This document shows positions 3,049 to 62,472 of a DNA stretch of 64,000 nucleotides, in pieces; the stretch's first letter is position 1; every line of letters begins with the position of its first letter. Under the pieces are notes generated by a model. The model searched no databases and was not told the origin of the DNA. It saw only the letters and a list, made by a program, of their open reading frames with translations. A program made the translations under genes and the position numbers. This DNA is from Escherichia phage vB_EcoP_EP32B, in the sequence record OR544955; one strand, given 5' to 3'.

Positions 3049-3564
3049 TCACGGCCTCACATAAACATAGTTTCGTAATTGATGAGCCCATTTGCTCCAA
3101 TTTCCTACTATAGTTTTTGTATAAACCTTAGTAAGAGTTTTTTGTACTGGAGCCGGTGGAGGTTCTGTACCAGAGTCACTTCTAGAACCGCCTGATGAAC
3201 TTTCTTCTTGGTAGTTATAAATCATTTCAACCGTATAACTAAACACTTTACGAAGATTCTGAGGAGCTCTCCACAAATATAACTGTGTGGACTCATCTTT
3301 TGGTAAATCATCCCATGAAGATGCGGTTTCAAAATCATCATTTAATCGATATTTCAATGCGTCCGAAGAAAAGCTAAACACACTTTCATATGTTCCATAT
3401 AAACGATTACCGTCTACCGTAATGCCTTGTGTCGGTTCATAATCTGTTATATTTATTGACACTAAAGTTTCGGTTGTTTCTAACTGTGGAGTAAAAAGGA
3501 CGTCAATAGACGCCCCTTCCATGTCTTCTCCTAAGTCGGTATTTAAAGGAAGTATTTGTGCCAT
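3049..3564 (-). CDS. 5.1: hypothetical protein at gp5.1 position
   Basis: 171 aa ORF immediately downstream of gp5 on minus strand; assigned by synteny only. Confidence 0.55.
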
Positions 3565-5301: not shown

Positions 5302-5876
5302 TATGCAATCTCCATCTCACGAATCAAATCAGTAATAAACGAGTTTATATCTTCTTTTGCAACAATTTTTATTTTACGAAGTTTTTCATTATCTAATACT
5401 GCCGCTTCGTAAGTATCTACTGCAGCTAAAGGTCCTTTATATTGCGGATACTTACGAGCTTCATCACCTTTATCGTACCACACTAAAGGCTCGTCCGGAT
5501 ATGAAACTAAATTGTAAAATTTCTCACGATTTTCATTGATATGATAAAGAACTTGGTCTCCACCGGCATTAGCATATTTCTGAATAGAAGCTTGATACGC
5601 TGCTTCCTGAGATGTAATCCAACCATAATACGGGTCGTAGTTATCGTTACACATCAAAAGAACCCAGTATAATTGAGGGTTGCCATAAATTATGTTTGCT
5701 AGTTCTTCAGGACGCGGAGAGCCTTTAATATAATAAGAACGTAATCTATAATTGGCAGCAACACGCTTAAAGTACTCTTTATAGTTACGAAATATGTCTG
5801 TCATAGGAATAGTAGGTGCATTCTTATTAACTGTTTTAGCACTATATCCTATTGGGTCGAAGAATGTAAATAACAA
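5301..5876 (-). CDS. 53: baseplate wedge protein gp53
   Basis: 191 aa, [33 protein letters not shown], matches recalled T4 gp53; upstream of gene 5. Confidence 0.9.
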
Positions 5877-5903
5877 GATAGTCTCCTTCCAATATGAAAT
5901 TGG

Positions 5904-5911
5904 TATAAATA
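5904..5911 (+). promoter_or_regulatory. T4-type late promoter TATAAATA upstream of gene 4/2 ORF
   Basis: exact TATAAATA about 27 bp before ATG 5938, followed by AGGAGG. Confidence 0.5.
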
Positions 5912-5918
5912 ATAATAC

Positions 5919-5926
5919 TATTTATA
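5919..5926 (-). promoter_or_regulatory. T4-type late promoter TATAAATA (minus strand) upstream of gene 53
   Basis: plus-strand TATTTATA reads TATAAATA on minus strand, about 43 bp upstream of gp53 start; divergent arrangement with the gene 4 promoter. Confidence 0.45.
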
Positions 5927-5937
5927 AGGAGGACAAC

Positions 5938-7134
5938 ATGGCCTACTCTGGTAAATGGGTCCCAAAAAATTTAAAAAAATACCGTGGAGACCATACCAAA
6001 ATAACGTATCGTTCAAACTGGGAAAAATTCTTTTTCGAATGGTTAGATAAAAATCCAGAAATTATTGCATGGGGTAGTGAAACAGCAGTAATTCCATATT
6101 TTTGTAATGCTGAAGGTAAAAAACGTCGATACTATATGGACATATGGATGAAAGATGCATCAGGTCAAGAGTTCTTTGTAGAAATAAAACCAAAGAAAGA
6201 AACTCAACCACCTATTAAGCCTGCAAATCTTACTACCGCAGCAAAGAAACGTTATATGAATGAAATATATACCTGGTCTGTGAACTGTGACAAATGGAAA
6301 GCTGCCTCAGCTATGAGCATATTCCAAATTATATCTGAAGGCGTACAAGCCCCTAAGATTGCTCAGTCTATGAATGAAAGAAAATGGATTGAGATAGGAT
6401 TAGAATACAAGAAAGCTAAAGAGAAAGGAATCACTGCAAAAGCATTTGCAGAATCAAAAGGAATAAAATACTCGTCGTTTACATCTGCAATGTCTAGATA
6501 TGCATCATCTATTAAGACCGCACAGAAAATTGAAACGCTTGAATCTAAACCTAAAAATAAACTCAATAAGCAAGAACGTCAACTTCTGATGATAAACTCG
6601 TTTCGCAGTTCAATACGAGAAAAGATTAGAAATGAAGGCGCAGCAGTAAACAACAAATCATCTAAGTGGTTTGTTGAAACAATTAAGAAAAGTGTAAAAG
6701 GTCATAAAGTAGTCAAGCCTACGCCAGGCAAAATTTATACTTACGTGTATGATGCTAAACATAAAGATACTCTGCCGTATTGGGACAGATATCCTTTGAT
6801 TATTTATTTAGGATTAGGTAAACATAATTTGATGTATGGATTAAACTTGCACTATATCCCACCTAAAGCACGACAACAGTTTCTTGAAGAATTGCTGAAG
6901 CAATATGCTAGCACAACTACTATTACTAATAACACAAAGTTGAAGATAGACTGGAGCAAGGTGAAAGGATTTCAAGGTGCTGACAAAATGATTAAAGCAT
7001 ACCTGCCTGGCCACATTAGAGGAACAATAACAGAAATAGCTCCTAAAGACTGGGCTAACATAATCATGTTACCTACTCAGCAGTTTATGTCAAAAGGAAA
7101 ACGTTTCTCTGCGAATACTGTTTGGAAATCTTAA
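5938..7134 (+). CDS. single 398-codon ORF combining a head completion (gp4-like) N-terminal region and a DNA end protector (gp2-like) C-terminal region
   Basis: ATG 5938 preceded by AGGAGG; [19 protein letters not shown]...; no in-frame stop until 7134; total length close to T4 gp4 (150 aa) plus gp2 (274 aa); internal Met at codon 126 (MSIFQII) leaves 273 codons. Confidence 0.55.
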
Positions 7135-9360: not shown

Positions 9361-9440
9361 AACCTCAAGGAAATAAAATGAAAACATATCAAGAATTTAT
9401 ATATGTTATAGTAGTCCTATCAAAACAAGAGGATAATAAA

Positions 9441-9626
9441 ATGAAACGCGCTGAACTGATTCGTAATGTTGCTGTAGTAATTGCTTCAATGGCTTTTAGT
9501 TTTTCGATGTTTGTAGGATTCATTTGTGGACTACTGACAACAACTGAAAACTCTATCTCATTGGTAGTAGCATTTCTAATCGGCTTAATCGCTATCGTTA
9601 TGGATAAAATTGCAAAAGGTGAGTAA
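9441..9626 (+). CDS. small hydrophobic membrane protein (61 aa)
   Basis: track ORF 9378..9626 begins MKTYQEFI (internal-protein targeting-sequence-like) but a PeSL-like fragment lies inside; likely start MKRAELIR after GAGGA. Confidence 0.4.
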   Translation: MKRAELIRNVAVVIASMAFSFSMFVGFICGLLTTTENSISLVVAFLIGLIAIVMDKIAKGE

Positions 9627-9989
9627 ATGAAATATCATGTATATGCAGATTTTGAAGCAAATCCTTCTAAAGACCATGATTGTCGTTTGATACGCAGACC
9701 ATTTGATTCAGCAGCTCAAGCCTGGGCTTGGATTAAATCTAAATCGCCTGGTTATATGTTCTTTGAAGTAGTCGATGACAATGGTACACTGCATCCGGCC
9801 CCTACAGAAACTATTAATTTCCTTCTGTTTGCTGGTTATGACTGTTATCCTCTTGGTGGTATTGACGACCTTGTTGCTACAGGAAAAACTGTTGAGGCTC
9901 TTCGCGAAATTTATAAAAACGCAGAAGAAAATTTTGACTGGTATCATATTGTTGATGCTCATACCTTTGAAATAGTGGAACATTCATGA
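9627..9989 (+). CDS. hypothetical protein (120 aa)
   Basis: ORF abutting upstream gene, compact T4-style packing. Confidence 0.6.
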   Translation: MKYHVYADFEANPSKDHDCRLIRRPFDSAAQAWAWIKSKSPGYMFFEVVDDNGTLHPAPTETINFLLFAGYDCYPLGGIDDLVATGKTVEALREIYKNAEENFDWYHIVDAHTFEIVEHS

Positions 9990-10276
9990 TTCTTTATGCT
10001 AAGGTAAAATCCGTTGAGAATGGATATGAAAGCGACCGGGGTGCAGCTAAAGCACTAGTCGATGACTACGGTATTCTGACTAACTTTGAGGTTGAAAAGG
10101 TTTATATCGACCGTTCATCTTCACAGGTTAAATTACTCTGTGAAGACAATAAATTTAACACAGTTAATTTTGATTTCTTTATTGAAACTGAATCAGGTCC
10201 TCTTGAATATGATATTTTCAAGAATCCTTTGAAATTACGTTGCATTGAATATAATTACATTAATATGGTACGGTGA
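9986..10276 (+). CDS. hypothetical protein (96 aa)
   Basis: ATGA overlap with upstream ORF. Confidence 0.55.
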   Translation: MILYAKVKSVENGYESDRGAAKALVDDYGILTNFEVEKVYIDRSSSQVKLLCEDNKFNTVNFDFFIETESGPLEYDIFKNPLKLRCIEYNYINMVR

Positions 10277-10280
10277 GTAA

Positions 10281-10772
10281 ATGAATATTTGTTTAGGCAG
10301 TACAATTCCTAAGGGTTACGTAATTGATGTCACTACTTGGGAAAATGACGGTGACAACTATAAAACCAAAACATTATTTGGTGTAGAAGAGCATGAGCTC
10401 CAACAGTTTAAATATCTCTTGAAGAAATTTAAGAGTCGTCATTCTAGTACTAAAGCTGAACGTTACTGTGGTAATACACTATTCAGTGATTGCTCGCTTT
10501 TAATCTATGAATACTTGGTTGAAGGACTGTTCTCAGACCAGCTTTATCCAGAATTCATTAAAAAGGTCTTTGATATTGAAGTCGACCTTGGTAATAAATC
10601 TGAAGAAGACGAATCACGTGTATTTGACCTGTTCCAAGGTCTCATTGATATTCTTGGCCATGCTTCTGAATATTATGACTATGATTTCTTGCGTGTAGTT
10701 GAACGTGTTGAATTCGCTTATATTGAAGAAGAAATTGTTTTGCCGACTGTTAAAATGATTGATTTGCTTTAA
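10281..10772 (+). CDS. hypothetical protein (163 aa)
   Basis: ORF with upstream GTGAGTAA-ATG context. Confidence 0.6.
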   Translation: MNICLGSTIPKGYVIDVTTWENDGDNYKTKTLFGVEEHELQQFKYLLKKFKSRHSSTKAERYCGNTLFSDCSLLIYEYLVEGLFSDQLYPEFIKKVFDIEVDLGNKSEEDESRVFDLFQGLIDILGHASEYYDYDFLRVVERVEFAYIEEEIVLPTVKMIDLL

Positions 10773-11029
10773 GAATTATGTGTTATTATTAATTCATACC
10801 CTCTATTACCAAAGGTGCTCTAAAGTGCCTTTCATAATAGAAAGTTATTTAGGCCCTGTAGCTCAATGGTGCAGTAGCTGCTCTGGAAAACCTGTTCCAA
10901 ATTGCAACAGAAGAACGCGAAGAAGTTACATTATGGATTGAAGATAACGCAGGTCTGAATCTCCAGGACGCGATCTCATTATCCCACAATAGTATCACTG
11001 TTCAAGGCTGGGTATCATCTAGTTATTCT

Positions 11030-11080
11030 TGCTAAAACAGTTTACAACAAGATAGGGCTATGTTATAGTAGTCCTATCAA
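11030..11080 (+). promoter_or_regulatory. early promoter in inverted repeat (PeSL-like)
   Basis: AAAACAGTTTAC -35, inverted repeat GATAGG...CCTATC around TGTTATAGT, then AAATGGAG Shine-Dalgarno. Confidence 0.45.
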
Positions 11081-11097
11081 AACAAATGGAGTCCACA

Positions 11098-11337
11098 ATG
11101 ATTTATTACGAAAGTATCGGAACCAAAGTGGTTGGTAAAACCATTACTCGTGAAAAGTTTGCAAAGATATTCGATATGCGTTATAAAAAATCTGAACACA
11201 AAGGCATCCGATTCGAAGATGCGCACTGTACAATTTGCCCTTATAATGAAGACATAAACGGTACAATCGTTCCATTGGTAGAGGCTTCACATGATGACCT
11301 CTGGGATGAATATAATATCGCATGTCGTGAAATTTAA
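11098..11337 (+). CDS. hypothetical protein (79 aa)
   Basis: ORF 11086..11337, start taken at MIYYES after GGAG. Confidence 0.5.
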   Translation: MIYYESIGTKVVGKTITREKFAKIFDMRYKKSEHKGIRFEDAHCTICPYNEDINGTIVPLVEASHDDLWDEYNIACREI

Positions 11338-12402: not shown

Positions 12403-12603
12403 ATGACTACTTTGAATAAACGTTTCGGTAAAGCTAAACCTGGTTGTGCAGCAGAACGTCGTTATGTTTTCGCTCAGTTAGAAGATGTAGAGTATCAGAT
12501 TAATCAAGTTCACATTACTGGTATCGAGCCTATGTGTGGCCTTGAAGCTCTTCGTGAAGTTCGTGATGGGTATCGTCGTGACATCGAAGAAATGTCAAAA
12601 TAA
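12403..12603 (+). CDS. hypothetical protein (66 aa)
   Basis: ORF 12385..12603, start at MTTLNKRFG. Confidence 0.5.
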   Translation: MTTLNKRFGKAKPGCAAERRYVFAQLEDVEYQINQVHITGIEPMCGLEALREVRDGYRRDIEEMSK

Positions 12604-12650
12604 GTGTACAAACTGATAGGACTATGTTATAGTAGTAGTCCTATTAAAAC
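12604..12650 (+). promoter_or_regulatory. early promoter in inverted repeat (PeSL-like)
   Basis: GTGTAC -35 variant, inverted repeat ATAGGACTATGTTATAGTAGTAGTCCTAT, then GAGGAG. Confidence 0.4.
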
Positions 12651-12664
12651 ATGAGGAGAATATT

Positions 12665-12970
12665 ATGAAATTAACAGAAACCAATCGAATTGGTCTTTTA
12701 ACAATACTTGCATCACCTTTTTACGCAACTCTTTCTGTTGCAGTATTACAAAAGGCTTACGATATGGATGGTGTTCCTGGTTTTGTATTCTTATCGCCGT
12801 TTTTGCTATTCGTTGGAGCATTGTTATTATATGCCACGACTGGTTTCGACCATAATGTCTGGGTCAATTATAAACGTAAATTGTCCGAAGAAGAACACGC
12901 AGAAGCTCGTAAAAAAGCTATTGAATCTACCAATCTAGAAAATTTCATTAAAGAATGTCGAGGAAAATAA
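12665..12970 (+). CDS. membrane protein (101 aa, two hydrophobic segments)
   Basis: hydrophobic stretches ILASPFYATLSVAVL and FVFLSPFLLFVGALLLY. Confidence 0.6.
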   Translation: MKLTETNRIGLLTILASPFYATLSVAVLQKAYDMDGVPGFVFLSPFLLFVGALLLYATTGFDHNVWVNYKRKLSEEEHAEARKKAIESTNLENFIKECRGK

Positions 12971-15976: not shown

Positions 15977-16068
15977 GGAACAAAATGAAAACTCCAACCT
16001 GTAATAATGTCGAGCCCAAGTGCGGTAATGGGTTGCCACGGAATGGCCCAACATAAAAGAGAAACTAA

Positions 16069-19760: not shown

Positions 19761-19969
19761 ATATACATTATCCACATCCATATGACCCAAAGAATAAGGC
19801 AGTAATTATTCGTCAATGGGAACGCATTTGCCGTACTAAATGCCCAATTAATAGTCCACATGATGTAGATAAAGACTATATTGGAACATTCGTTGAATAT
19901 ACCTTTATTGATAAGAAAGGTCGTAAACAACATGTAGAAGAATATTGCTTAAAGGTTACATGGTTATGA
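19757..19969 (+). CDS. hypothetical protein (70 aa)
   Basis: ORF 19742..19969, start at MNIHYPHPYD. Confidence 0.45.
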   Translation: MNIHYPHPYDPKNKAVIIRQWERICRTKCPINSPHDVDKDYIGTFVEYTFIDKKGRKQHVEEYCLKVTWL

Positions 19970-20496
19970 GTCTTACTGCCGCCCATAACTATAAAGAACG
20001 TGGCATGGGTGTATTAGTTCTTAAACCGGCTATTGATACTCGCGATTCAAAAGGTGAAATAGTCTCTCGTATTGGTATTCGTCAGGACGCCAATATAATT
20101 ACAAAAGACATGGATATCTTTGAATTCTATAAATGGGCTGCAGCACAAAAGGATATTCATTGTGTATTTGTTGACGAAGCTCAGTTCTTAACTACTGAAA
20201 AGGTGTATCAACTTAGTCGTATTGTTGACGTATACAATGTGCCGGTAATGGCATATGGACTACGAACAGATTTTAAAGGTAATCTATTTGAAGGTTCTCA
20301 AGCATTAATGGCTATTGCCGATAAGCTTGTTGAACTTAAAGGTGTCTGTCATTGCGGTAAAAAGGCCACAATGGTAGCTAGAGTCACGGAAGACGGACTT
20401 CCAATTACAGATGGCAGTCAAATTGAAATTGGTGATACTGATAGATATGTGTCATTATGCCGGAAGCATTGGAATGATTTGACAGGGTTGTTATAA
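19960..20496 (+). CDS. tk: thymidine kinase homolog lacking the N-terminal P-loop (probable remnant)
   Basis: MVMSLTAAHNYKERGMGVLVLKPAIDTRD... aligns with TK1-family Tk from just after the GKS Walker A; in-frame stop 19924-19926 upstream. Confidence 0.7.
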   Translation: MVMSLTAAHNYKERGMGVLVLKPAIDTRDSKGEIVSRIGIRQDANIITKDMDIFEFYKWAAAQKDIHCVFVDEAQFLTTEKVYQLSRIVDVYNVPVMAYGLRTDFKGNLFEGSQALMAIADKLVELKGVCHCGKKATMVARVTEDGLPITDGSQIEIGDTDRYVSLCRKHWNDLTGLL

Positions 20497-30674: not shown

Positions 30675-31088
30675 ATGAATATTTCTGAAACTCGCGGTAA
30701 ATGGTTCAAGATTGTTAAAGAAGACGAAGAACTCCAAGATAAGTTTCCTGAATTAAAGAAAGATACGATCATCAAGGTAATTGGTACTACTACCGAAGAT
30801 GGTTATGGCGACCATGGCATTATCGAAGTGATGTTGAACACAGGTGAGAAACTTTGCATCTATGACCGTGATACTTCTCTTTGGTGCTTCTGGGAATCCC
30901 ATTCAATAGATGAACTCGAAGAAATTGACCAAGTAGTTTGTGATGGTGGTCTTGGCGAATTCGAAGGTGAACGTATTTCTTATGCTTTAGCTAAATTAGC
31001 CGGTCAAGAAAATAACGACGGTTATGAAGGTAATCTGATGCAAGCAGCCGCAGAATACATTGAATATTTAGAAAGACGTTTAAGTTAA
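30675..31088 (+). CDS. hypothetical acidic protein (137 aa)
   Basis: start MNISETRGKWF overlapping upstream stop (TGATATG). Confidence 0.55.
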   Translation: MNISETRGKWFKIVKEDEELQDKFPELKKDTIIKVIGTTTEDGYGDHGIIEVMLNTGEKLCIYDRDTSLWCFWESHSIDELEEIDQVVCDGGLGEFEGERISYALAKLAGQENNDGYEGNLMQAAAEYIEYLERRLS

Positions 31089-31127
31089 GTAATAAATACC
31101 CTTATCTATTTAAGGTAAGGGTTTATC

Positions 31128-40015: not shown

Positions 40016-41578
40016 ATGAAATCATTTAAATTAAATCGTGTTCGTTATCAAAACATCATGTCAGTAGGTGGGAATCCTATTGATATCCAATTAGATAAAG
40101 TCCAAAAGACATTAATCACTGGTAAAAATGGCGGTGGTAAATCTACGATGTTAGAAGCCATTACTTTCGGACTTTTCGGTAAACCATTTCGTGATGTTAA
40201 GAAAGGACAAATCATTAATAGCATGAACAAGAAAGAGCTCTTAGTTGAGCTTTGGATGGAATTCGATGATAAAAAATACTTCATTAAACGTGGCCAAAAG
40301 CCCAATATTTTCGAAATCTCCGTTGACGGTGTTCGTCTCGATGAATCTGCCAGCAGTCGTGACTTCCAAGAAGAATTTGAACGTAGCATCGGAATGTCAT
40401 ACGCGTCTTTTAAACAAATCGTTGTGCTTGGGACGGCAGGGTATACCCCTTTCATGGCTCTTAGCACCCCTGCTCGTAGAAAGCTTGTTGAAGACTTATT
40501 AGAAGTTGGCACACTCGCTGAAATGGATAAAATCAATAAGTCTCAAGTTCGCGAACTTAATTCTCAGGGACAAGTTCTTGATGCCAAGAAAGATGGTATT
40601 ATCCAACAAATTAAGATTTATAACGAGAATATCGAACGTCAAAAGAAATTATCTGGTGATAATGTAGCGCGTCTACAGAATATGTATGACGACCTAGCCA
40701 AAGAAGCTCGGTCATTAAAAGCAGAAATCGAAGAAGCTAATGAGCGACTACTTAATATCGTTCTTGATGAAGACCCTACTGAGGCATTCAACAAGATAGG
40801 ACAAGAAGCATTCTTGATTAAATCTAAAATTGACTCATATAACAAAGTTATTAAGATGTATCATGATGGCGGTACATGTCCTACTTGTGCATCACAGTTG
40901 CACCAGGGTGACCCTATTGTCTCTAAGATTACCGATAAGCTTCATGAATGTAATCACTCATTCGAGCAACTTACATGTCACAGAGATAATCTGAGTGTCC
41001 TAGTGGACGAATATAGAGCTAATGTCAAGACTAAACAGGACCTTGCATCTGATATTCGTACCAAGAAACAAGCAATGATTGCCACTATTGATAAAGCTAA
41101 GAAAGTTAAAGCTGCAATAGAACAAGCCTCAGCAGAATTTATCGACCATGCCGATGAGATAGCTTTGCTTCAAAAAGAACTTGATAAAATCATTAAAACA
41201 AAATCGGATATCGTTCTTGAAAAATACCATCGTGGTATTATCACAGATATGTTAAAAGATTCTGGTATTAAAGGTGCTATCATTAAAAAATATGTGCCTC
41301 TGTTCAACAAGCAGATTAACCATTATCTTAAAATCATGGAAGCTGATTACGTGTTTTCTATTGACGAAGAATTCAATGAATCTATAAAATCACGTGGCCG
41401 TGAAGAGTTCAGTTATGCTTCATTTAGTCAAGGCGAAAAAGCGCGTATCGATATCGCATTGTTGTTTACATGGCGAGATATTGCTGAAAAGGTCTCTGGT
41501 GTTAAAATCAACACAACGTGTTCATTATTTCTCACAGAGACCATGACCCACAAGCTTATGGACAACATCTTCAAATGA
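40016..41578 (+). CDS. 46: recombination ATPase subunit gp46 (Rad50/SbcC-like)
   Basis: 520 aa; Walker A GKNGGGKST, long coiled-coil, CPTC zinc hook. Confidence 0.9.
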   Translation: MKSFKLNRVRYQNIMSVGGNPIDIQLDKVQKTLITGKNGGGKSTMLEAITFGLFGKPFRDVKKGQIINSMNKKELLVELWMEFDDKKYFIKRGQKPNIFEISVDGVRLDESASSRDFQEEFERSIGMSYASFKQIVVLGTAGYTPFMALSTPARRKLVEDLLEVGTLAEMDKINKSQVRELNSQGQVLDAKKDGIIQQIKIYNENIERQKKLSGDNVARLQNMYDDLAKEARSLKAEIEEANERLLNIVLDEDPTEAFNKIGQEAFLIKSKIDSYNKVIKMYHDGGTCPTCASQLHQGDPIVSKITDKLHECNHSFEQLTCHRDNLSVLVDEYRANVKTKQDLASDIRTKKQAMIATIDKAKKVKAAIEQASAEFIDHADEIALLQKELDKIIKTKSDIVLEKYHRGIITDMLKDSGIKGAIIKKYVPLFNKQINHYLKIMEADYVFSIDEEFNESIKSRGREEFSYASFSQGEKARIDIALLFTWRDIAEKVSGVKINTTCSLFLTETMTHKLMDNIFK

Positions 41579-45072: not shown

Positions 45073-47757
45073 ATGAAAGAATTTTACTTAACGGTTGAAC
45101 AGATTGGTGATTCAATTTTTGAACGTTACATCGATTCTAATGGCCGTGAACGTACTCGTGAAGTAGAATATAAACCATCACTGTTTGCTCATTGTCCAGA
45201 AAGTCAGGCTACGAAATATTTCGATATCTACGGTAAGCCGTGTACTCGTAAGTTGTTCGCTAATATGCGTGATGCCTCCCAATGGATTAAACGTATGGAA
45301 GATATCGGACTTGAAGCACTTGGCATGGACGATTTCAAATTGGCGTATTTGTCTGACACTTATAACTATGAAATCAAATACGACCATACAAAAATTCGTG
45401 TGGCTAACTTCGACATCGAAGTAACATCTCCGGACGGGTTCCCTGAGCCGTCACAAGCAAAACATCCGATTGATGCTATCACCCATTATGACTCAATTGA
45501 CGACAGGTTCTACGTATTTGATCTATTGAATTCTCCATATGGTAATGTAGAAGAATGGTCTATCGAAATTGCAGCTAAGCTTCAAGAACAAGGTGGTGAT
45601 GAAGTTCCATCCGAAATTATCGATAAAATCATTTATATGCCGTTCGATAACGAAAAAGAATTGTTGATGGAATATCTCAACTTCTGGCAACAGAAAACTC
45701 CTGTCATTTTGACTGGATGGAACGTTGAGTCATTTGATATTCCATATGTGTATAACCGAATCAAGAATATTTTTGGCGAATCTACTGCGAAACGTTTATC
45801 ACCACATCGTAAAACTCGTGTTAAAGTTATCGAAAACATGTATGGTTCTCGTGAAATCATTACATTGTTCGGTATCTCTGTTCTTGATTATATTGACCTT
45901 TACAAAAAATTCTCTTTTACCAATCAACCGTCGTATTCTCTGGATTACATTTCAGAATTTGAATTGAACGTTGGTAAACTGAAATACGACGGTCCTATTT
46001 CTAAACTTCGTTATAACATCATCGACGTATATCGTGTATTGCAAATTGATGCTAAACGCCAGTTCATTAACTTGAGTTTGGACATGGGTTATTATGCTAA
46101 GATACAGATTCAATCTGTGTTTAGCCCAATTAAAACATGGGATGCTATTATTTTTAATAGCCTTAAAGAACAAAACAAGGTGATTCCACAAGGTCGTTCG
46201 CATCCAGTTCAACCTTACCCGGGTGCTTTTGTTAAGGAACCTATTCCAAATCGATACAAATATGTAATGAGTTTCGACCTTACATCTCTGTATCCAAGTA
46301 TTATTCGCCAAGTGAATATTAGCCCGGAAACAATAGCAGGAACGTTTAAAGTAGCTCCACTGCATGATTATATTAACGCAATCGCTGAACGTCCTTCAGA
46401 TGTGTACAGTTGCTCTCCTAACGGCATGATGTATTATAAAGACCGTGACGGTGTTGTTCCAACTGAAATCACTAAGGTCTTTAATCAACGTAAAGAACAT
46501 AAAGGTTATATGCTTGCAGCTCAACGTAATGGTGAAATAATTAAAGAGGCATTGCATAATCCTAATCTTTCTGTTGACGAACCATTAGATGTTGATTATC
46601 GTTTCGACTTCAGCGATGAGATTAAAGAAAAGATTAAAAAGTTGTCTGCTAAATCTCTTAATGAAATGTTGTTTAGAGCTCAACGTACTGAAGTTGCAGG
46701 TATGACTGCACAGATTAACCGTAAATTGCTTATCAACTCACTTTATGGTGCACTTGGAAACGTTTGGTTCCGTTATTATGATTTGCGTAATGCTACTGCA
46801 ATCACAACATTCGGACAAATGGCTTTACAGTGGATTGAACGTAAAGTTAATGAATATCTGAATGAAGTTTGCGGTACAGAAGGTGAAGCTTTCGTTCTTT
46901 ATGGTGATACAGACTCTATTTACGTATCTGCTGATAAAATTATCGATAAGGTTGGTGAATCTAAATTCCGTGATACCAACCATTGGGTAGACTTCTTAGA
47001 TAAGTTCGCTCGTGAACGTATGGAACCTGCTATTGATAGAGGTTTCCGTGAAATGTGCGAATACATGAATAATAAGCAACATTTGATGTTCATGGACCGA
47101 GAAGCTATCGCTGGTCCTCCGCTCGGTTCTAAAGGTATTGGTGGATTTTGGACTGGTAAGAAACGTTATGCATTAAACGTGTGGGATATGGAAGGTACTC
47201 GTTACGCTGAGCCTAAACTCAAAATCATGGGTCTAGAGACTCAGAAATCTTCGACACCTAAAGCAGTACAGAAAGCTCTTAAAGAATGTATTCGTCGTAT
47301 GCTTCAAGAAGGTGAAGAATCATTACAAGAATATTTTAAAGAGTTTGAAAAAGAATTCCGTCAATTGAATTATATTAGCATCGCGTCGGTATCTTCTGCG
47401 AATAACATTGCTAAATATGATGTCGGTGGATTCCCTGGCCCCAAATGTCCGTTCCATATTCGTGGAATTCTGACATATAACCGAGCTATCAAAGGTAATA
47501 TCGATGCACCGCAAGTTGTAGAAGGTGAAAAAGTATATGTTCTGCCTTTACGTGAAGGAAACCCATTCGGTGATAAATGTATCGCATGGCCTTCTGGTAC
47601 GGAAATCACTGATTTAATCAAAGATGATGTACTTCATTGGATGGACTACACGGTTCTCCTTGAGAAGACATTTATTAAACCACTTGAAGGATTCACATCA
47701 GCAGCTAAACTCGATTACGAGAAGAAAGCATCTCTGTTCGATATGTTTGATTTTTGA
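45073..47757 (+). CDS. 43: DNA polymerase gp43 (family B)
   Basis: 894 aa; exonuclease motif FDIEV, polymerase motifs DxxSLYPS and YGDTDS. Confidence 0.95.
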   Translation: MKEFYLTVEQIGDSIFERYIDSNGRERTREVEYKPSLFAHCPESQATKYFDIYGKPCTRKLFANMRDASQWIKRMEDIGLEALGMDDFKLAYLSDTYNYEIKYDHTKIRVANFDIEVTSPDGFPEPSQAKHPIDAITHYDSIDDRFYVFDLLNSPYGNVEEWSIEIAAKLQEQGGDEVPSEIIDKIIYMPFDNEKELLMEYLNFWQQKTPVILTGWNVESFDIPYVYNRIKNIFGESTAKRLSPHRKTRVKVIENMYGSREIITLFGISVLDYIDLYKKFSFTNQPSYSLDYISEFELNVGKLKYDGPISKLRYNIIDVYRVLQIDAKRQFINLSLDMGYYAKIQIQSVFSPIKTWDAIIFNSLKEQNKVIPQGRSHPVQPYPGAFVKEPIPNRYKYVMSFDLTSLYPSIIRQVNISPETIAGTFKVAPLHDYINAIAERPSDVYSCSPNGMMYYKDRDGVVPTEITKVFNQRKEHKGYMLAAQRNGEIIKEALHNPNLSVDEPLDVDYRFDFSDEIKEKIKKLSAKSLNEMLFRAQRTEVAGMTAQINRKLLINSLYGALGNVWFRYYDLRNATAITTFGQMALQWIERKVNEYLNEVCGTEGEAFVLYGDTDSIYVSADKIIDKVGESKFRDTNHWVDFLDKFARERMEPAIDRGFREMCEYMNNKQHLMFMDREAIAGPPLGSKGIGGFWTGKKRYALNVWDMEGTRYAEPKLKIMGLETQKSSTPKAVQKALKECIRRMLQEGEESLQEYFKEFEKEFRQLNYISIASVSSANNIAKYDVGGFPGPKCPFHIRGILTYNRAIKGNIDAPQVVEGEKVYVLPLREGNPFGDKCIAWPSGTEITDLIKDDVLHWMDYTVLLEKTFIKPLEGFTSAAKLDYEKKASLFDMFDF

Positions 47758-62011: not shown

Positions 62012-62326
62012 ATGGCGCACTTTAATGAATGTTCACAACTTATTTCTGGTGTTGATAAAGCAGAAGAAGCTTATTTTAATGCTCTGATTCACGAAGATAA
62101 AGACCCACTTCAGGTAATGCTTGATATGCAGAAATCTTTACAGGTTCGTCTGGCAAATGACAAGCCTGAACATAACAAACATCCTGATGAATTGGCTACT
62201 GCCGGTGATGTTGTTGATTGGCTGCGTAATCAGAAAGATTATATTGATGATGAATTCCGTGAACTGTTGACTTCACTTGGTGGTATGATTATAAATACAC
62301 CTGTAATTAAACAACAAAGGAGTTAA
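62012..62326 (+). CDS. 56: dCTP pyrophosphatase gp56-like (MazG-type), short form
   Basis: MAHFNECSQLISGVDKAEEAYF...ATAGDVVDWLRNQKDYIDDEFRELLTSLG; 104 aa, shorter than T4 gp56 as recalled. Confidence 0.65.
   Translation: MAHFNECSQLISGVDKAEEAYFNALIHEDKDPLQVMLDMQKSLQVRLANDKPEHNKHPDELATAGDVVDWLRNQKDYIDDEFRELLTSLGGMIINTPVIKQQRS
62290..62297 (+). promoter_or_regulatory. late promoter TATAAATA upstream of soc
   Basis: exact TATAAATA about 32 bp before soc ATG, within the 3-prime end of gene 56. Confidence 0.5.
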
Positions 62327-62328
62327 TT

Positions 62329-62472
62329 ATGGGTGGTTATGTAAACATCAAAACCTTTACGCATCCTGCTGGTGAAGGCAAAGAAGTTAAAGGTATGGAA
62401 GTTTCTGTACCGTTTGAGATTTATTCAAACGAACATCGGATTGCTGATTCTCATTACCAAGTAAGTGGTTAA
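62329..62472 (+). CDS. soc: Soc-like small outer capsid protein, shortened (47 aa)
   Basis: GYVNIKTF...HYQVSG resembles Soc N-terminus and extreme C-terminus; AAGGAG Shine-Dalgarno; terminator immediately downstream. Confidence 0.55.
   Translation: MGGYVNIKTFTHPAGEGKEVKGMEVSVPFEIYSNEHRIADSHYQVSG

Follow-up and report, generated by a model that had tools for sequence, protein, structure and literature searches.

A phage tRNA gene cut after base 19 at a kilobase-scale deletion junction in the tRNA–e region of a Mosigvirus sequence

The gap between called ORFs at 10773–11085 (313 bp) of the window, by which we mean the whole 64-kb stretch of DNA analysed, raises the question of whether it holds the remains of a tRNA gene and, if so, how that gene came to be incomplete. 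The source of the window is a Mosigvirus (RB69-like, T4-type), and the closest record is that of E. coli O157 typing phage 3 (tp3), at ∼98% identity. The initial annotation had seen a 300-bp non-coding stretch with what was probably a decayed tRNA gene, at the site where T4 carries its tRNA cluster. We assign a probability of about 0.9 to a more specific reading, in which a 19-mer within the gap is the authentic 5′ end of a phage tRNA(CAT) gene, cut after base 19 and joined to codon 12 of an ORF of the family phrog_4882. The features of the gap and its neighbours are these:

9378–10276, plus strand: homologs of T4 trna.4, trna.3 and trna.2 (84%, 41% and 85% identity, blastp against T4 proteins)
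10281–10772, plus strand: upstream neighbour ORF, 163 aa, phrog_2290, with 94% amino acid identity to MM02 CDS 473–988
10773–10851, plus strand: 79-nt spacer, leading into the tRNA gene in relatives; identical in MM02 and SCS57
10852–10870, plus strand: tRNA stub, read as the first 19 nt of a tRNA(CAT) gene (5′ acceptor strand, 5′ D-stem and part of the D-loop)
10870/10871, no strand: deletion junction, with 4,925 bp (relative to tp3) or 5,115 bp (relative to MM02) absent and 0 nt microhomology
10871–11035, plus strand: 5′-truncated small ORF, codons 12–65 and TAA of the conserved 65-aa protein phrog_4882
11041–11069, plus strand: promoter-like site of sigma-70/T4-early type, TTTACA-17-TATAGT with TG; a consensus match only, conserved in relatives
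11086–11337, plus strand: downstream neighbour ORF, 83 aa, phrog_3723, intact and 100% identical to MM02 CDS 6428–6667 over 80 aa

The proposed correspondence with the T4 tRNA cluster is borne out by gene order, as trna.4, trna.3 and trna.2 lie upstream of the cluster in T4 and their homologs lie directly upstream here. The intact Mosigvirus set consisted of MM02, tp3, SCS57, RB69, mar006P2 and one IMG/VR contig. In all of these relatives a homolog of ORF 10281–10772 stands directly before a tRNA pair, followed by a 79-nt spacer, tRNA(CAT) and, 3–6 bases on, tRNA-Arg(TCT); the pair in MM02 scores 59.4 and 71.1 bits against the Rfam tRNA model. RB69-type phages carry no tRNA genes besides these two (PMC2993671, Table 2). 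In the window, ORF 10281–10772 has itself lost 24 nt (eight codons) at ∼10636 and encodes 163 aa, against 171 aa in MM02, tp3 and SQ17.

The tRNA-like string GGCCCTGTAGCTCAATGGT lies at 10852–10870, exactly where it had been reported, and has no second match anywhere in the 64 kb when up to three mismatches are allowed (0.01 expected by chance). Its supposed likeness to a tRNA acceptor stem and D-arm proved to be complete identity: the stub matches the tRNA genes of tp3 and SCS57 and T4 tRNA-Ile at 19/19 positions each, the last of these through the alignment with T4 tRNA genes that had been suggested as a check, and it matches the MM02 allele at 18/19. When spacer and stub are taken together (10773–10870), 98/98 positions are identical to SCS57, with the identity reaching tRNA base 19; the 79-nt spacer upstream of the tRNA-Met(CAT) of RB69, tp3 and SCS57 is likewise identical to that of the window. 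Because of the 98/98 identity to SCS57 with the spacer and the 19/19 identity to T4 tRNA-Ile, we regard the 19-mer as homologous to a phage tRNA gene and not as a chance match. Its relationship to RF00005 is thus one of homology, with a 5′ acceptor strand and D arm at the orthologous locus behind an identical 79-nt spacer.

The Mosigvirus tRNA(CAT) gene is annotated as tRNA-Met. In tp3 and SCS57, however, it is identical to T4 tRNA-Ile at 73/74 positions, and we therefore take it to be the ortholog of that AUA-reading tRNA; the CAU anticodon of T4 tRNA-Ile is modified and reads AUA. T4 tRNA-Ile (T4t002) begins with the same 19 nt as the stub and holds the same position downstream of the trna.4–trna.3–trna.2 homologs. 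The T4 gene and its Mosigvirus ortholog are complete, whereas the copy in the window lacks positions 20–74 and is called as a tRNA by no detector. Two divergent CAT-tRNA alleles occur at this one Mosigvirus locus, as observed by comparing MM02 (L003) 1068–1142 with tp3 (L009) 3454–3530, L006 and L007. They are mutually identical at 55/77 positions, and the only parts they share are the spacer upstream and their first 18 nt; the MM02/HX01-type allele matches T4 tRNA-Ile at only 54/76 positions, against 73/74 for the other allele.

The statement that no complete cloverleaf could be drawn agrees with every search made. ARAGORN returned 0 tRNAs over the whole 64-kb window, Rfam cmscan at the gathering score gave no family match, a relaxed Rfam scan with Infernal gave no tRNA match at E ≤ 10 on 10600–11200, and the RNA fold of 10845–10935 was no more stable than its shuffles (z = +1.17). 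Weak Rfam matches to SSRC8, isrI and ST7-OT4 (E 2.6–9.6) fell inside the upstream ORF and were rejected as chance. Neither a covariance model nor ARAGORN recognised the acceptor, D, anticodon and T arms of an RF00005 cloverleaf in the stub. Everything from tRNA base 20 onwards is absent from the locus (positions 20–74, comprising the 3′ D-stem, anticodon arm, variable loop, T arm and 3′ acceptor strand), in line with the earlier failure to find a 3′ acceptor strand, and alignment to tRNAs revealed no degraded sequence resembling positions 20–74 downstream of the stub. It had also been proposed that the tRNA assignment be dropped if a relaxed Infernal search showed no similarity to any tRNA. 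That rule would wrongly reject the stub, since 19 nt is too short for covariance models, and the identification is made by synteny with relatives alone.

Only part of the gap deserves the name non-coding. The spacer and the stub do, and the remainder up to 11035 is a 5′-truncated protein gene, so that the stretch as a whole is best read as a conserved spacer, a 19-nt tRNA stub and a protein gene without a start. Of the 65 codons of the phrog_4882 gene, 54 are held in 10871–11035 (the 3′ five-sixths). The remnant frame, followed from 10862, translates to LNGAVAALENLFQIATEEREEVTLWIEDNAGLNLQDAISLSHNSITVQGWVSSSYSC up to its stop and matches the phrog_4882 profile at positions 12–65 of 65 (E 9.8e-28); the full-length ORF of ∼65 aa with a start codon, which in SQ17 reads MSRELDCAVRTAVAALENLFQ...SSYSC, is reduced here to those profile positions. 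No ATG, GTG or TTG occurs in this frame after the in-frame TAG at 10859–10861, and the ORF list has no entry in it. Over 10871–11085, the window is identical to tp3 and MM02 at 215/215 nt. The further 3′ segment TCTCATTATCC, which had been likened to tRNA, lies at 10975–10985 within this remnant, where it encodes its codons I-S-L-S and is unrelated to tRNA. An expressed micro-ORF in the gap was considered and rejected: the 60-aa TTG ORF at 10759–10941 and the minus-strand ORFs are out of the conserved frame and have no homologs. The promoter-like site at 11041–11069 probably serves the downstream gene and is unaffected by the deletion. A promoter-like sequence of ∼50 nt (…GTTTACA…TATGTTATAGTAGTCCTATCAAAAC…) recurs upstream of several early genes, at 11036–11085, 9402–9446 and 12603–12670 of the window and at 1629–1675 and 1954–2002 of tp3 (L009), and marks edges of gene-cassette differences between relatives.

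Stub and remnant meet at a single position. Both flanks of 10870/10871 are 100% identical to intact relatives up to the break, the left flank stopping at tRNA base 19 and the right one beginning at codon 12 of the 65-aa ORF, which lies downstream in every intact relative. Collinear blocks set the break at 10870/10871, with the 4,925 bp of tp3 or the 5,115 bp of MM02 in between; each flank thus breaks off within a feature that relatives possess in full, as expected of a deletion junction. Across the break (marked by a slash) the window reads GTAGCTCAATGGT/GCAGTAGCTGC. With a parent allele of the tp3/SCS57/T4 type the join is blunt, from ...CAATGGT/TAGCAG... to ...GTACGTACG/GCAGTAG.... Microhomology amounts to 0 nt, the nearest similarity being GCAGCAGT against GCAGTAGC, displaced by 2 nt, and there is no 5–10 nt direct repeat of which one copy is kept, as there would be at a short-repeat deletion. 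An untemplated filler T at 10870, which MM02 as parent would call for, was rejected because the tp3/SCS57/T4-type allele has T at position 19.

Relative to MM02, the window lacks tRNA bases 19–75, tRNA-Arg(TCT), 13 complete annotated ORFs and the first 11 codons of the 65-aa ORF. Across relatives the missing block comprises two tRNAs and 11–13 small ORFs, and a 90-aa ORF is also removed. Every ORF of the block falls in a PHROG family without a known function. Homologs of T4 e.6, e.5, e.4 and e.3 are among them (88%, 47%, 53% and 36% identity), and by T4 gene order the block corresponds to the tRNA-to-e interval. In T4 the tRNA–e region, from trna.2 to the lysozyme gene e, is dispensable on laboratory hosts, and classical deletion mutants exist. 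The junction was found in none of the other sequences searched (50,697 phage records of INPHARED, IMG/VR, JGI metagenomes, GTDB genomes and complete E. coli genomes). Three proteins encoded in the window likewise had no entry of identical sequence, so that these collections do not include the source genome.

The break at 10870/10871 is one of many. In a whole-window alignment to tp3, 16 clean blocks are absent (76, 613, 4,925, 93, 35, 460, 144, 445, 133, 214, 176, 296, 88, 159, 594 and 89 bp), together with losses of 12–28 nt, and the only insertions are two small ones of 9 and 6 nt. At least 22 deletions of 12–613 bp thus accompany the tRNA junction in comparison with this nearest relative. 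The 15 further blocks (35–613 bp) have clean junctions at 6312, 9402, 13070, 13913, 15992–16034, 17578, 19972, 28076, 30239, 31076–31089, 34225, 41514, 48093, 62287 and 62460, with an overlap of 0–2 nt in 13/15; counted over all 16 junctions, overlaps of 0–2 nt occur in 14, which is chance level. Junctions 6312 and 19972 were searched for in phage records and were absent from every one. Once the 4,925-bp gap is set aside, the lengths of the other 22 gaps are compatible with an exponential distribution of mean ∼168 nt (KS p 0.45); on that model, P for a gap of 4,925 bp is about 2e-13. Left breakpoints fall in the first 2–8 codons of an ORF in 5/16 cases (9402, 15992, 19972, 30239 and 34225; binomial p about 0.002), a pattern that random coverage gaps fail to explain and that boundaries between conserved and variable cassettes might. 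Several deletions that start at ORF 5′ ends create in-frame fusions. A control comparison of MM02 with tp3 over the same 12.6 kb showed just two cassette replacements and no clean deletions.

Point differences follow a different pattern. Between the window and tp3, 370/420 fall in the third codon position, and changed codons are synonymous in 373 cases versus 38 non-synonymous ones. Such natural differences indicate that the backbone is a genuine diverged lineage, with nothing that looks abnormal apart from the deletions. Synthetic random mutation of the window was rejected on the same grounds, the differences being overwhelmingly synonymous and in the third position.

Several of the smaller losses fall in genes of known importance. 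Genes 46 and 56 are essential in T4, gene 46 being a conditional-lethal locus, and for this reason a lesion in gp46 is unexpected in a plaque-forming phage. The gp46 ORF (Rad50/SbcC-like recombination nuclease, 40016–41578) has nevertheless lost 88 bp at 41514/41515, including the Walker B motif LILDEVFD, and is frameshifted, with 20 unrelated residues at its end. At 62287/62288, 594 bp are absent, comprising the 3′ half of the gene 56-like NTP pyrophosphohydrolase (dCTPase), a 57-aa ORF and most of a head-protein ORF, soc-region genes among them; the structural ORF that follows has lost another 89 bp, at 62456–62460. The DNA polymerase (gp43 homolog) has an in-frame loss of 27 nt (YISYNIIDV) at ∼46019–46030, including the Exo III YxxxD proofreading motif. 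Thymidine kinase (tdk, 19945–20496, junction 19972) lacks its first ∼19 codons, P-loop (NAGKSSS) included; two small ORFs upstream of it are also gone, and what is left of the gene is joined in frame to the upstream ORF at its ATGAGTC start. The head-completion gene 4 homolog (5794–7134, junction 6312) lacks its last 25 codons and reads on in frame through the start ATG of gene 2 (DNA end protector), the two forming one long ORF. Two internal-protein genes with the capsid-targeting start MKTYQEF are cut after codon 8 (9378–9626, junction 9402) and codon 3 (15985–16034), so that an ipI-like gene, a nuclease inhibitor in relatives, is absent; at junction 9402 the remnant is fused in frame, via promoter-like sequence, to the trna.4 homolog.

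How the tRNA gene was lost can be judged against these data. Gradual decay in place by point mutations and small indels, leaving only the 5′ part recognisable, is what a decayed gene would ordinarily mean, and the want of both a 3′ acceptor strand and a cloverleaf is what it predicts. Yet the 19 nt that remain show no difference from the intact gene, no degraded tRNA sequence lies downstream, and what follows is identical at 215/215 nt to another locus, 4.9 kb away in relatives, and holds the phrog_4882 coding remnant (E 9.8e-28). A pseudogene produced by decay should align to its parent over nearly the full length with substitutions and small indels, whereas here positions 1–19 alone align, at 100%, and bases 10871–10930 align better to the 65-aa ORF than to tRNA positions 20–74, a result that refutes a gradual-decay pseudogene. 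Because the flanks are 100% identical up to the break and nothing like positions 20–74 follows it, slow decay is in effect ruled out and we regard it as very improbable. Of the earlier verdict, the tRNA-gene remnant stands and the decay does not; the gene was truncated by a single break-and-join, through a deletion of ∼4.9 kb at 10870/10871. The stub or junction sequence might instead serve as a functional RNA (a tRNA-like processing signal, tRNA half, small RNA or regulatory hairpin), and the region probably does lie on an early or middle transcript, but nothing positive speaks for such a role. The locus matches no Rfam family even at E ≤ 10, it folds no better than shuffles, and the junction is unique to the window and hence has no conservation behind it, making this the least probable of the explanations considered.

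Truncation by a single break-and-join says nothing of where the break arose, and here an error in the sequence record (gaps closed without Ns in a draft or reference-guided assembly, or another loss of segments) has to be taken seriously, because other deletions in the window destroy essential genes (gp46, gene 56). In that case, the tRNA genes of the real phage would be intact, or a divergent cassette would occupy the site; the question concerns the origin of the junction only, and the anatomy described above holds either way. The one-sidedness of the changes relative to tp3, with clean blocks and short losses throughout and hardly an insertion, is in keeping with such a defect, as are the absence of all three junctions tested from every phage record, the chance-level overlaps, the exponential lengths of the smaller gaps, which random coverage gaps would also show, and the lack of clean deletions in the natural pair MM02 and tp3. 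The natural character of the point differences confines the abnormality to the deletions. Lesions in gp46, the gene 56-like dCTPase, gp43 Exo III, gp4–gp2 and tdk should be lethal or crippling. The 0 nt microhomology at the tRNA junction also departs from the 5–10 nt in PMC5449768 and the 7–16 nt in SQ17. On the other hand, the 4,925-bp gap is a huge outlier that probably reflects another kind of event than the small gaps, and its position coincides exactly with a dispensable region in which natural deletions recur (SQ17; PMC5449768). The segments on either side are well conserved in relatives, with no mapping or divergence boundary that would explain the right end, and the concentration of left breakpoints within the first eight codons of ORFs is unlike purely random gaps. 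On our reading, the window sequence, as it stands, cannot faithfully represent the genome of a plaque-forming phage, and the small gaps look like the product of a record-level process, e.g. collapsed assembly or consensus gaps. For the tRNA junction itself, we consider a record defect slightly less than an even bet, and the odds between a junction real in the phage and one created or blurred at the record level are roughly even.

Whatever its origin, the break-and-join at 10870/10871 removes the rest of the tRNA gene, tRNA-Arg(TCT), 11–13 small ORFs including the e.3–e.6 homologs, the 90-aa ORF and the start of the 65-aa ORF. To judge from the anatomy, a stub lacking the anticodon arm, T arm and 3′ acceptor strand would be neither processed nor charged, and the phrog_4882 remnant, without its start codon, would not be initiated. 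At most, read-through transcripts would include the stretch as a passive part, and stub and ORF remnant are probably inert passengers that have lost their function. The flagged tRNA-like remnant is a truncation scar in a T4-type region already known to be dispensable and plastic, and of little biological weight in itself.

If the deletion is biological, it would represent an illegitimate (non-homologous) deletion in the dispensable tRNA–e region, and the phage would have lost its only two tRNAs, reading AUA and AGA. ORFs in the window use ATA and AGA at 9.9 and 5.7 per 1000 codons, roughly twice the usage of E. coli, and a modest translational cost would therefore be expected on some hosts. 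The isolate would be a naturally tRNA-less RB69-type phage, usable to test the contributions of the AUA and AGA tRNAs and of the e.x genes. A more ambitious and, in our estimate, unlikely proposal is that the loss is both real and selected, with RB69-type phages recurrently shedding the tRNA-Ile/tRNA-Arg and e.x block where it triggers a host abortive-infection or defence system. This proposal leans on the present phage, on SQ17 and on ToxIN-escape deletions in Serratia phages of the T4 family; were it true, the phage would pay by decoding AUA and AGA codons more slowly. Any ‘missing’, ‘truncated’ or ‘fused’ feature of the window calls for a check against raw data before it is interpreted, because many deletions relative to tp3 destroy genes and the three junctions searched were found in no other sequence.

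Comparison with known deletions places the missing block in the dispensable, deletion-prone tRNA–e region. The classical T4 tRNA–e deletion mutants affect the same map interval and are laboratory mutants, whereas the window represents an RB69-type phage with only two tRNAs to lose. The nearest natural counterpart is SQ17 (vB_EcoM_SQ17, MW882907), a natural isolate in which an independent deletion, formed at an exact repeat of 8 nt, removed 4.6–4.8 kb of this block. Like the window, SQ17 is a Mosigvirus without both tRNAs (ARAGORN called no tRNA at its locus) and without the same small-ORF block, and the same downstream gene cluster resumes after the break. Its left breakpoint lies 51 bp upstream of that in the window, 32 bp before the tRNA start, and leaves no tRNA stub; its right breakpoint lies before the 90-aa ORF and, unlike in the window, leaves both small ORFs intact. 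When SQ17 (L001) 2040–2063 was compared with MM02 (L003) 1020–1035 and 5834–5849, the deletion was seen to run between the imperfect 16-nt repeats TATTACCAAAGGTGCT and TATTACTGAAGGTGCT, with the exact core AAGGTGCT, as in a textbook short-repeat deletion. The two SQ17 deletions have overlaps of 8–16 nt and 7 nt, and no repeat of the kind found at the SQ17 junction is present at that of the window.

Deletions of this kind have also been obtained under selection. In T4-family Serratia phages escaping ToxIN abortive infection, 21 spontaneous deletions of 6.5–10 kb were described in viable mutants (Chen et al. 2017, PMC5449768). They removed tRNA genes and ORFs of unknown function, most of their 5′ borders lay inside tRNA genes, and every one was bordered by a 5–10 nt direct repeat (PMC5449768, Table 3). 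The window resembles them in its kilobase-scale loss (4.9 kb against 6.5–10 kb) of tRNA genes and unknown ORFs; it differs in belonging to another phage genus, in having no repeat at the junction and in having no known selection behind it. The kind of event is thus well known; the window adds a new allele, whose only unusual feature is that its junction has no repeat.
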